This document shows positions 848-62,679 of a DNA stretch of 64,000 nucleotides, piece by piece. Position 1 is the first letter of the stretch; each line of letters opens with the position of its first letter. Made by a program: the position numbers and the translations under genes. Below the pieces are notes generated by a model. That model was not told the origin of the DNA. It searched no databases and was given only the letters and a program-made list of their open reading frames with translations. This DNA comes from an uncultured Planctomycetaceae bacterium (GTDB taxonomy: Bacteria; Planctomycetota; Planctomycetia; Pirellulales; UBA1268), in contig CAIXGY010000139.1 in the NCBI GenBank assembly GCA_903919035.1, positions 6,144-70,143 of the forward strand, written 5' to 3'.

Positions 848-972
848 TCTGGGGTCCTCGTGAGCCTCGCGCATGGGGAGGCCTCTCGTTCGCAGCCGGC
901 GTTGCTGGCCGAGCGCGGCACGGATTGCGAAGCGCGGCCGGCATCGAGTGAGCAACGGGCACGACGCCCGTC

Positions 973-1009
973 GCGAACGTCCGAGCGAGACGGCACGGGC
1001 AGCCCCGAC
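973..1009 (+). repeat. copy of the GCGAACGTCC...GGGCAGCCC intergenic motif (family of the element at 34432..34676)
   Basis: GCGAACGTCCGAGCGAGACGGCACGGGCAGCCCCGAC matches 34644..34680 at 34 of 37 positions (hand alignment). It is followed by the hairpin TGACCGATCCCGGTCA at 1055..1070, and the other copy has a similar hairpin at 34677..34695. Confidence 0.7.
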
Positions 1010-33712: not shown

Positions 33713-34381
33713 GTGAATGACAGCGACCTGGCCGGGGATCTGGCCGCCGCGTGCGGCCGCCTCGGCCTCGACGTGACTCCCGATGCCATGCCGAGGCTCG
33801 CCGCGTTCGCGGCGAGCCTCTGGTCTTGGAATGAGCGGCTGAATCTCACGAGGCACACGACGCCGGAATCGTTCGCGGCCCGCGACGTCGCCGATTCGCT
33901 CGCGCTCGTGCCGCACCTGGCGGCCGGCGAACGGGTGCTCGACGTGGGCACGGGCGGCGGCGTGCCGGGGGCGATCCTGGCGATCCTGCGGCCGGATCTG
34001 CGGGTGGACCTCTGCGACAGCGTGGCCAAGAAGGCCCGCGCGGTCGCCGAGATCGTGAAGGAGGCCGGCCTCCGGGTGCCGGTGCATGCCTCGGCGGCTC
34101 AGGAGTTGGTCGTAGCCCGGGCCAAGGGCCCGAACCGGTTCGACACGCTCGTGGTCCGGGCGGTCGCACCCCTGGAAAAGCTCCTCCGCTGGTTCGAGCC
34201 GCTTTCAGGATCGTTCGGCCGGATGCTCGTGATCAAGGGGCCGCGATGGGAGGCGGAGAAGGCCGAGGCCCGACACCAGGGACTCGGAAAGAAGGTCTCG
34301 ATCCGCCGCCTCGCCTCGTGGCCGCTGCCGGGGAGCGACAACGAGAGCGTGCTGCTCGAGATCAAGGTCCGCGCGTCCTGA
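33713..34381 (+). CDS. rsmG: 16S rRNA (guanine527-N7)-methyltransferase
   Basis: 222 aa with WNERLNLT and the SAM motif VLDVGTGGGVPG. Lies 12 nt after the glnN stop. Confidence 0.85.
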   Translation: MNDSDLAGDLAAACGRLGLDVTPDAMPRLAAFAASLWSWNERLNLTRHTTPESFAARDVADSLALVPHLAAGERVLDVGTGGGVPGAILAILRPDLRVDLCDSVAKKARAVAEIVKEAGLRVPVHASAAQELVVARAKGPNRFDTLVVRAVAPLEKLLRWFEPLSGSFGRMLVIKGPRWEAEKAEARHQGLGKKVSIRRLASWPLPGSDNESVLLEIKVRAS

Positions 34382-34431
34382 CGCATCGGCTCGTGGCTCG
34401 TGTGGCGACGGTCAACGCGCCCAACCGGCTC

Positions 34432-34676
34432 GGGGCTGCCCACGCCCTCTCGCGGGACGTTCGCTACGGGCCTCCAGCCCTCCGCTCTCTGCATGTCCGC
34501 TGCGCTTCGACATCCTGTCTGCGCTTGCTCCCATAGCCCCGCTCAAGGGGATGGGCAGCCCCTCGCCCACCTTCAGCGTCGAACGGCGAACCGGTCAGAC
34601 AGTCGGTCAATACGGCCAGAACTCCAGGGAGGGGCTGCCCGGAGCGAACGTCCGGGCGAGACGGTACGGGCAGCCC
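34432..34676. repeat. inverted-repeat-bounded ~245-nt intergenic element (MITE-like or structured RNA)
   Basis: The arms 34432-34464 (GGGGCTGCCCACGCCCTCTCGCGGGACGTTCGC) and 34644-34676 (GCGAACGTCCGGGCGAGACGGTACGGGCAGCCC) are imperfect inverted copies. Internal GGGCAGCCCC (34553-62) and GGGGCTGCCC (34631-40) allow perfect 10-bp helices. The right arm recurs at 973..1009. Confidence 0.65.
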
Positions 34677-34702
34677 TGACCGATGCGGGCCGTCACTCGT
34701 GC

Positions 34703-35194
34703 CTACAGGTTCATGCCCAGGTAGCCGCCCGCGGCGTCGCTCGCCGCCTGCTCACGGGCGAGACGCTCCAGCGCCCGGGAGAGGTCGCCGGCTGCGATGT
34801 AGCGGTCGAACTCCGTCTCCACGGCGTGCTTCACCGACAGTTTCAGCCACTCCACGGCCGGCTGCGTGAGCCAGTCGCAGGTTTCCAGCGCGAGCCCGAT
34901 CTCCACGTCGCTGCCGATCGTCCGGGCGTCGAGCTCGTCGGTGAGCACGGTACCCTCGAAGGTGAACCGCACCCAGCCGGAATCGGCGTCGTTCGTGAAT
35001 CGGAACGTGCAGGCGCCGTCCGTGAGATAATAGGTGTTCCGCGTCCCGTGACGGCCGACCGCCCGCTGCATCTTCTCGAGGCGGCGGCGGTAGCCGGGGG
35101 AGGCATCGAGCGGAATGTCGAGCCTGGGCACGCTGCGCAGCGGCGTGCAGTCGAACGTGATCGCCACGGCCGGAAGTGAGACGTCGCCACCCAT
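34703..35194 (-). CDS. hypothetical protein (163 aa)
   Basis: Track ORF 34703..35389 trimmed to MGGDVSLPAV (CAT 35192-35194), because the plus-strand apbE frame carries the coding signal above 35193. G/C third positions run throughout. No motif recognised. Confidence 0.55.
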   Translation of the reverse strand: MGGDVSLPAVAITFDCTPLRSVPRLDIPLDASPGYRRRLEKMQRAVGRHGTRNTYYLTDGACTFRFTNDADSGWVRFTFEGTVLTDELDARTIGSDVEIGLALETCDWLTQPAVEWLKLSVKHAVETEFDRYIAAGDLSRALERLAREQAASDAAGGYLGMNL

Positions 35195-62489: not shown

Positions 62490-62562
62490 GCCCCCGTAGC
62501 TCAGTGGATAGAGCGACGGTTTCCTAAACCGTAGGTCACAGGTTCGATCCCTGTCGGGGGTA
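62490..62562 (+). tRNA. tRNA-Arg (anticodon CCT)
   Basis: Hand-folded cloverleaf: acceptor GCCCCCG/CGGGGGT, D arm GCTC-AGTGGATA-GAGC, anticodon arm ACGGT-TTCCTAA-ACCGT (CCT), variable loop AGGTC, T arm ACAGG-TTCGATC-CCTGT, discriminator A. No encoded CCA. Confidence 0.9.
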
Positions 62563-62679
62563 CTGAGTTTTTGGGTCATCCTCCACGTCGAGCGATTTTC
62601 GCGGGCCGCGTGAAGGGTTGATGGCTCCTGATGGCCCCCGAACGCTCTTGGGCGCACTGAATCGCGCATTGTTTTCCGG

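Follow-up and report, generated by a model that had tools for sequence, protein, structure and literature searches.

REP units are imperfect palindromes of 20-40 nt, REPINs are doublets of such units that form one long hairpin, and both are mobilised by RAYT transposases. ERIC (IRU; 127 bp) and the Correia elements of Neisseria are long imperfect palindromes of about 100-155 bp that form a single long hairpin; they are intergenic, co-transcribed, non-coding and spread across genera, they occur in internally deleted and insertion-bearing variants, and Correia elements have TA duplications. All four kinds of repeat are known mainly from Proteobacteria, and their mobility, mRNA stabilisation and protein binding are still debated. 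Here we analyse an intergenic region of a 64,000-nt stretch of DNA (the window) from an uncultured Planctomycetaceae bacterium (contig CAIXGY010000139.1), flagged at 34432-34695 in a first-pass annotation made from the sequence alone. The flagged region is a head-to-head dimer of one complete and one internally deleted copy of a repeat of about 131 nt. This repeat is probably a dispersed, non-coding, non-autonomous and mobile structured element resembling REPINs, ERIC and miniature inverted-repeat transposable elements (MITEs). In REP families head-to-head dimers have been reported as predominant, and REP-type dimers are known to form larger hairpins (PMC3733652).

The first-pass annotation had described one inverted-repeat-bounded element of about 245 nt. 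As a single unit this was wrong: two copies adjoin in opposite orientation, and each supposed inverted-repeat arm is the 3' arm of one of them. A covariance model (R1) was built from a structure-blind MAFFT alignment of 68 distinct sequences (A1) and run unfiltered across the whole window, where it matched exactly three copies with the following parts.

34432-34562, minus strand: complete copy, 131-nt core made up of 5' arm, three-way junction and 3' arm (R1 120.3 bits, E=4e-21, full model length)
34427-34567, minus strand: complete copy with its 5-bp stem extension, 141 nt (GGCGA...GAGCC; G-C, C-G, then tandem G·A)
34432-34464, minus strand: 3' arm of the complete copy, GCGAACGTCC-CGCGAGAGGGCGTGGGCAGCCCC, the left segment of the first-pass annotation; pairs with 34542-34562 as P1
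34542-34562, minus strand: 5' arm of the complete copy, GGGGCTGCCCATCCCCTTGAG, one half of P1
34509-34519, minus strand: hairpin P2a, GACA-GGA-TGTC, loop GGA
34468-34480, minus strand: hairpin P3, GGGC-TGGAG-GCCC, loop GGA, architecture as in P2a
34412-34431, minus strand: 3' tail GAGCCGGTTGGGCGCGTTGA, which recurs in 3' flanks (about 1 in 5 copies)
34563-34630: spacer of 68 nt between the 5' ends of the head-to-head dimer
34631-34677, plus strand: internally deleted mini copy (R1 21.7 bits, E=0.028, matched end-to-end with 83 model positions deleted)
34644-34676, plus strand: 3' arm of the mini copy, the right segment of the first-pass annotation
875-1006, plus strand: third copy, of another subfamily (R1 68.8 bits, E=2.8e-11)

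In the mini copy P2, P2a and P3 are missing, while its outer closing stem and 3' arm are retained. Two helices proposed earlier find their place here, 34432-41 with 34553-62 being the closing stem of the complete copy and 34632-41 with 34667-76 that of the mini copy. The third copy has a decayed 5' arm and has lost the GGA of its P3 loop; it lies 28 nt past the stop of an open reading frame (ORF; 221-847) and upstream of a squalene-hopene-cyclase-like gene. If the whole 321-nt spacer that holds the dimer were transcribed, its two 3' arms are predicted to pair into one large hairpin, on either strand. A 52-aa ORF with a GTG start (34412-34570, minus strand) lies wholly inside the complete copy and its flank, and such ORFs risk being mis-annotated as hypothetical proteins. 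A protein-coding or small-peptide remnant was rejected, despite this ORF, on the 1-nt indels that break the frame between copies.

The core of 33-37 nt noticed at first is only the 3' arm of the unit, as alignment of the flanks of further loci revealed. Unit length is 130-135 nt in 69 of the 86 cases with a detectable partner arm, and the consensus from A1 reads GGGGCTGCCCGTGCCCTCGAGCCGGCGTTGG.AGC.AGCG.AGCCAGGATGGCGAAGCGCAGC...CACCGAGTGAGCGGAGGCC.GGAGGGCCG.AGCGAACGTCCGGCGAGAGGGCACGGGCAGCCCC. In the flanks of the 86 full copies, 4-5 bases outside each arm lengthen the closing stem to give a 141-nt unit, so that the terminal inverted arms measure 18 bp, or 23 bp with the extension. Watson-Crick forms of this extension covary (GCGA/TCGC, GCTC/GAGC, GTGA/TCAC, GGAC/GTCC and GCCA/TGGC), and GCGA/GAGC is an alternative that forms G-C and C-G plus tandem G·A.

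Segments 34432-34464 and 34644-34676 are, as first seen, imperfect inverted copies with the common blocks GGGCTGCCC, TCTCGC and GGACGTTCGC, and 973-1009 does match 34644-34680 at 34 of 37 positions. GGGCAGCCCC or its complement occurs four times in the window (34432, 34553, 34631 and 997) against 0.54 expected. Dinucleotide shuffles gave an expectation of 0.00 both for the 33-nt core with up to 3 mismatches, which has two plus-strand matches in the window, and for the gapped pattern GAACGTCC-N1-3-GCGAGA-N4-8-GGGCAGCC, which recovers all three arms; these values bear out the earlier judgement that the similarity was unlikely to be chance, and they rule out a chance origin of the repeat. A hairpin, TGACCGAT...GTCA, had been said to follow both plus-strand copies. 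It does lie 3' of both (34677 and 1055) but is no part of the element: the offsets are unequal (0 nt and 49 nt), the 8-mer occurs in the window just as often as chance predicts (twice), and TGACCGAT is absent from the 3' flank in all 124 copies elsewhere. The pairing proposed between CGGTCA and TGACCG likewise exists locally but is not a feature of the family.

One genome per species was scanned with the gapped 3'-arm pattern, which gave more than 116 loci; a scan ascertained on the 3' arm is biased towards solo 3' arms. At least 112 of these loci, from about 43 species of metagenome-assembled genomes (MAGs), belong to bins labelled Planctomycetota, Pirellulales or Planctomycetaceae or to evidently mislabelled lake bins, and at least 11 come from a single MAG, the highest number among the matches listed. 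Four pattern matches (Streptomyces, Rhodocyclaceae, Acidimicrobiales and an unclassified bacterium) were set aside as chance, having no surrounding similarity and no R1 match. As far as sampled, the family is confined to a clade of uncultured freshwater Planctomycetota. Within the 116 loci (0.7 Mb) R1 found 130 copies. The first-pass annotation had allowed that its two loci might be remnants of a duplicated gene end; across more than 100 loci the genes next to the copies are unrelated, which disposes of that alternative.

Compensatory change has conserved the fold of the unit, a three-way junction that carries a pair of near-identical hairpins. Our model, assembled from RNAalifold and inspection of subfamilies, consists of an 18-pair closing stem (P1), a short helix (P1b), a 7-pair long-range helix (P2) and the hairpins P2a and P3. 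In A1, 91.3% of cells hold standard pairs, compared with 31-46% when partners are slid by 1-3 columns, and covariation, a check proposed at the outset, is present at 22 of the 43 pairs, which have changed on both sides (244 cells); in all 500 shuffles the paired percentage, the double-change counts and the covariation score stayed below those of the real alignment. P1 is 96.6% paired across the 68 sequences, with changes on both sides in 5 of its 18 pairs, P2a is 98.5% paired with compensatory changes in all 4 pairs, and P3 is 94.1% paired with such changes in 4 of 5. The same module occurs twice, as P2a and as P3, and consists of a GC base, an internal loop of 3x3 purines (GNA/GAA), a covarying stem of 4-5 bp and a loop with the near-invariant GGA. 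Mini-hairpins of the form GCGNAGC, which would compete with P2a, were considered, and the covariation favours P2a.

These data bear on the possibility that the repeat is a cut-and-paste MITE derived from a DDE insertion sequence (IS), in which case only the terminal inverted repeats would count, with an incidental fold between them. Terminal inverted repeats of 18-23 bp, a length of 131-141 nt, lack of coding capacity, the presence of multiple copies and an empty orthologous site (see below) would all suit such an element. Compensatory change in the internal helices and invariant loop sequences would not, and nor would the excess of G·U over A·C pairs (174 against 16); moreover, no target-site duplication is visible and no IS sharing these ends was found among the loci. 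We therefore regard a DDE-derived MITE as improbable.

The hairpin loops invite another explanation. In P2a G49 is invariant and G48 and A50 are each conserved in at least 90% of copies, and in P3 the same holds for G89 and for G88 and A90, respectively, while the stems covary. Common loop forms are C-AGGAU-G and C-AUGGAU-G, AGGAU or AUGGAU being the majority in P2a, and both agree with CsrA sites as published, in which A(N)GGA is embedded in a hairpin (PMC10729762). CsrA is reported to be conserved in Planctomycetes (PMC10729762, PMC4682653). The repeat could thus be an RNA module that serves the host, in which sense copies in 3' or 5' untranslated regions (UTRs) would present two A(N)GGA hairpins to a CsrA-type protein and act as a distributed sponge or as cis-regulators of adjacent genes. 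A purine-rich sense strand with conserved unpaired stretches and the conservation of orthologous copies would fit. However, about 30-50% of loops depart from A(N)GGA and read UGGAG or CGGAG, orientation relative to tandem genes is nearly random (29 sense, 20 antisense), many copies are decayed or truncated, and there is no Rfam match to CsrB or RsmX/Y/Z. Neither csrA nor fliW was seen in the DNA fetched around the copies, an uninformative sample. The resemblance of the GGA loops to CsrA sites is a lead taken from sequence rather than a test, and we consider a host-serving CsrA module unlikely.

The fold is strand-specific. Across family pairs G·U exceeds A·C by 174 to 16, and by 107 to 16 without one invariant pair that contributes 67 of the G·U cells. 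In 67 of the 68 copies the sense strand is more stable than its complement (mean -80.3 against -71.1 kcal/mol, a difference of 9.2), and for the complete copy in the window the predicted folds are -79.6 kcal/mol for sense RNA (z=-5.85) and -66.1 kcal/mol for the opposite strand. The sense strand is rich in G+A (61%), and its unpaired stretches are conserved. Both the excess of G·U over A·C and the greater stability of the sense strand therefore point to selection on one strand as a single strand, in the form either of RNA or of single-stranded DNA. By local skew the sense strand falls on the C-rich strand 47 times and on the other 26 times (p=0.02, from noisy 8-kb skews and with non-independent dimers), and it has no relation to the majority gene strand (32 against 30).

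If single-stranded DNA is the constrained form, the repeat could be a REPIN-like element moved strictly in that state by a single-copy HUH/Y1 (RAYT-like) transposase and without an RNA role, the covariation, G·T asymmetry and invariant loops then reflecting transposase recognition. A strand-specific fold is what this would produce. Head-to-head dimers are the commonest arrangement, as in REP families (PMC3733652), the solo 3' arms resemble decayed REP singlets, the conserved GAACGTCC tag that immediately precedes the 3' arm contains a CGTC, the sense strand has its weak bias (47 against 26) to one GC-skew strand, and small hairpins are nested in loop tips in either orientation. Against it, the GTAG tag is absent, the unit is a three-way junction of 131-141 nt and not a 20-40-nt palindrome or simple doublet, and no Y1 transposase was found in the 0.8 Mb of fetched DNA, which is a weak test. 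Orthologous copies are also better conserved than their non-coding flanks, for which transposase recognition alone is insufficient once a copy has inserted. Overall, transposition strictly as single-stranded DNA is a possible account, but a clearly less likely one than the broader mobile, structured repeat proposed above.

The locus itself offers a view of the repeat's history. The gap between rsmG and the convergent 163-aa ORF spans 34382-34702, and its length of 321 nt is as first claimed; the order GS-III, rsmG, 163-aa ORF, ApbE is preserved in relatives. The two bordering genes and the corresponding sites in four relatives (loci L119-L122) are as follows.

33713-34381, plus strand: rsmG (Pfam GidB in public gene calls)
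34703-35194, minus strand: 163-aa ORF, convergent with rsmG
L122, RsmG 75% identical: spacer of 31 nt with a plain GC-rich hairpin; empty site
L119, RsmG 90% identical: copy in the plus strand, same subfamily as the complete copy of the window and differing from it at 7 of 131 nt; 3' tail on the opposite side
L120, RsmG 86% identical: copy in the plus strand, from a different subfamily and containing the nested hairpin
L121, RsmG 85% identical: low-GC foreign DNA after rsmG, where the contig ends

Insertion polymorphism, which the first-pass annotation had proposed to look for, is thus evident: the spacer is empty in L122 and filled differently in the window, L119 and L120. The tail GAGCCGGTTGGGCGCGTTGA also stands on the 3' side of the inverted copy in L119, and the mini copy of the window aligns by position with the full plus-strand copies of L119 and L120. 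The spacer between rsmG and the 163-aa ORF may be an insertion hotspot. In L121 (3170-3638) about 470 nt of foreign-looking DNA at about 50% GC follows the rsmG stop directly, and a minus-strand ORF without a Pfam match runs off the contig end. Within the rsmG coding sequence of the window lies a perfect 13-bp inverted repeat, GAGGCTCGCCGCG-NN-CGCGGCGAGCCTC (33793-33820); R1 gives weak hairpin matches (14.6-21.3 bits) at that rsmG position in L117, L119, L120 and L122, the sequence having been inspected in the window only.

Other orthologous pairs show how copies change. The 131-nt elements of L019/L061 and L027/L066 have 0 differences, against about 3-7% in alignable non-coding flanks (about 7% for L019/L061). 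In L010/L088 the element has 11 differences, of which 6 form three compensatory double changes, 4 are unpaired and 1 is disruptive, and L016 and L028 carry different subfamilies at one shared site. From these orthologous-site comparisons it follows that the family undergoes gain, loss, inversion or replacement, and decay, and that intact copies show structure-preserving conservation. About 45 nt immediately 5' of the element in L027 (2070-2118) are wholly unlike L066, while the element and outer flanks are 97-100% identical, a contrast suggesting that sequence has been replaced locally at the 5' edge of the element.

Genes around the copies were predicted with a self-trained codon-usage scorer, which is crude, so that the calls are approximate. 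Overlap with a predicted gene exceeds 30 nt in none of the 130 copies. The 83 copies with predicted genes on both sides comprise 30 between convergent genes, 29 tandem-sense, 20 tandem-antisense and 4 between divergent genes; regions between divergent genes, where promoters lie, are avoided. Typically about 40-60 nt separate the unit's 3' end from the adjoining gene end. Among adjacent pairs the head-to-head arrangement occurs 12 times, head-to-tail 8 times and tail-to-tail once, and head-to-head spacers at other loci range from -10 to 209 nt. A CRISPR-like or tandem array was rejected, spacing being irregular and units mostly single or paired.

The position of the copies, mostly past stop codons and about 40-60 nt from a gene end, is also what would be expected of bidirectional terminator or insulator modules or of independently transcribed small-RNA genes; the first-pass annotation had named structured small RNAs or terminator modules as its alternative to a mobile repeat. 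The plain GC-rich hairpin between convergent genes at the empty site of L122 and a fold that is very stable on both strands could be cited in the same sense. Yet no terminator-like or sigma-70-like site was found in 34200-34900, and the family 3' flank has the consensus GAGCC..., which is not T-rich and lacks the U-tract of an intrinsic terminator, so that a canonical terminator is not present. Similarly, among the 86 full-copy flanks no conserved 5' flank able to hold a promoter was found, and with no Rfam match either an independent small-RNA gene is not supported. Termination needs no conserved three-way junction, and polymorphic, truncated and nested copies speak against both proposals. 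We consider either of them very improbable; an RNA-level role may remain because the unit is a conserved single-strand structure.

Variant copies are common. Internally deleted minis of 71-89 nt and 5'-truncated copies are both present, about 20 solo 3' arms often start exactly at GCGAACGTCC, and some full copies are followed by extra 3' arms in tandem. A separate hairpin of about 30 nt, CGACCAATCCGCC-N4-GGCGGATCGGTG, is nested in the apical loop of P2a or P3, in either orientation, at L011, L048, L055, L059, L095, L108 and L120 (for example L120:3405-3445) and nowhere in the window; its placement suggests that another small palindromic element has the tips of hairpins as its target. Two further modules adjoin the repeat without occurring in the window, namely CCCCCATCGCTTACGCGATTGGGC (11 matches in 7 loci) and the hairpin module GACAGGCTGAAGCCTGTC (23 matches in 9 loci); loci with the two are L005, L025, L096, L099 and L109 (3' flanks) together with L009, L067, L070, L083 and L113, and modules and repeat form BIME-like mosaics. 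Together with many further copies and an empty orthologous site, the truncated and nested copies support the MITE/REP-like alternative of the first-pass annotation.

Searches for known RNAs agreed with the earlier failure to match the region to any. An Rfam 15 scan of the whole window at gathering scores returned only a tRNA-Arg and nothing at the repeat, and at 34300-34800 with E up to 10 the best match was sX9, which at 20.1 bits (E=0.22) fell short of its gathering score of 44; no Rfam RNA, including CsrB/RsmX/Y/Z, ribozymes and riboswitches, was credible in either scan. The tRNA-Arg (anticodon CCT, 62490-62563) is the sole RNA gene found by Rfam or ARAGORN in the window. By-eye comparisons with a hammerhead-like core (CGAGUGAG...CGAAC) and, for P3, with group II intron domain V were rejected, as core positions differ and neither has an Rfam match. 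A phage or viral origin was dismissed, viral contigs giving no matches. A literature search on strings of the repeat sequence matched none of the papers it covered, and the repeat of about 131 nt is apparently undescribed so far.

How might the repeat be maintained? We propose that it behaves as a selfish or mobile element of the REPIN/ERIC/MITE kind, and that a trans-acting enzyme, recognising the single strand in its folded form, would do the copying; the two GGA hairpins and the conserved, GCGAACGTCC-tagged 3' arm would be the features recognised. The repeat may be co-transcribed because it settles just downstream of genes, and an RNA structure as stable as this (about -80 kcal/mol) could obstruct 3' exonucleases, hinder read-through or be bound by a protein.

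Several observations weigh against this proposal. Target-site duplications, which the first-pass annotation had suggested looking for, are not visible as direct repeats around the 86 full copies, where the first 4-5 flanking bases are instead inverted and extend the stem. No orphan pair of 5' and 3' arms encloses an ORF in the 116 loci (about 8 kb around each copy), and tblastn with approximate IS200 TnpA and E. coli RayT queries found no Y1/HUH transposase at E<0.9 in 0.8 Mb, a weak test given the approximate queries and the tiny part of each genome that was covered. A conserved two-hairpin interior with invariant loops is unexpected of cut-and-paste MITEs and is more elaborate than the hairpins of REP or REPIN. 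The weak bias in tandem orientation (29 against 20) is at odds with an obligatory function of the sense transcript through read-through, and the context counts rest on crude codon-usage gene calls. The replication-strand bias is weak as well (47 against 26, p=0.02, noisy 8-kb skews). Lastly, high conservation at orthologous sites could mean host-level selection or gene conversion and not recent mobility.

A more far-reaching explanation is that the copies form a network of dispersed GGA-hairpin RNA modules working through a CsrA-type or other protein, or that the fold is recognised by an undescribed single-strand (DNA or RNA) mobilisation system; we think it rather doubtful. Were the former true, hundreds of 3' UTR copies would constitute a genome-wide regulatory or titration network in Planctomycetes. 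The family in any case extends interspersed hairpin repeats to uncultured freshwater Planctomycetes, and its branched covarying fold, duplicated GGA hairpins and strand asymmetry are handles for finding the protein that recognises it, whether transposase or RNA-binding. It has a practical side too: the repeat fragments the MAG assemblies of this clade, at least 19 true contig ends being located within copies, as a high-identity multicopy repeat would cause in short-read assemblies, and R1 can be used to mask or annotate it.

How, then, does the repeat compare with the systems described? With REP and REPIN it has in common an extragenic, multicopy distribution mostly downstream of genes, head-to-head dimers, decayed singlets, and a hairpin with strand-specific asymmetry that gives larger structures when dimeric (PMC3733652). 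In contrast to them, the two halves of the planctomycete unit are not inverted copies of each other and form a three-way junction of P1, P2/P2a and P3, the GTAG tag stands at neither end, no RAYT was found in 0.8 Mb (a weak test), and the unit is common to about 43 species whereas REP are largely species-specific. An invariant CGTC does lie inside GAACGTCC, just 5' of the 3' arm and partly paired in P1b, but the arm that follows is not the 8-9-bp stem-loop of the described CGTC families. Compared by description only, ERIC and Correia elements are similar in size, long imperfect palindromic arms, intergenic site, presumed co-transcription, lack of coding capacity, spread across genera and deleted or insertion-bearing variants; the planctomycete repeat differs from them in belonging to another phylum, in a branched fold with covarying internal helices and in having no visible duplication. 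It resembles bacterial MITEs in its terminal inverted repeats, small size, non-coding nature, presence or absence at an orthologous site and nested and truncated copies, and departs from them in lacking a target-site duplication or a parent IS in the loci and in having a structurally constrained interior and a strand-specific fold. To the CsrA-binding RNAs (CsrB, RsmY/Z) there is an apparent likeness at the sequence level, with GGA in short hairpin loops, CAGGAUG and CAUGGAUG fitting the motif and two putative sites per unit about 40 nt apart. Those are dedicated genes with promoter and terminator, whereas the planctomycete element is a dispersed multicopy repeat without an Rfam match in which many loops are UGGAG or CGGAG. 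In behaviour, therefore, the repeat resembles REP/REPIN, ERIC and Correia, while it differs in its defining features from REP, from classical MITEs and from dedicated CsrA-sponge small RNAs. A covarying three-way junction, duplicated hairpins with invariant loops and a clear strand asymmetry are what is new in it among interspersed hairpin repeats.

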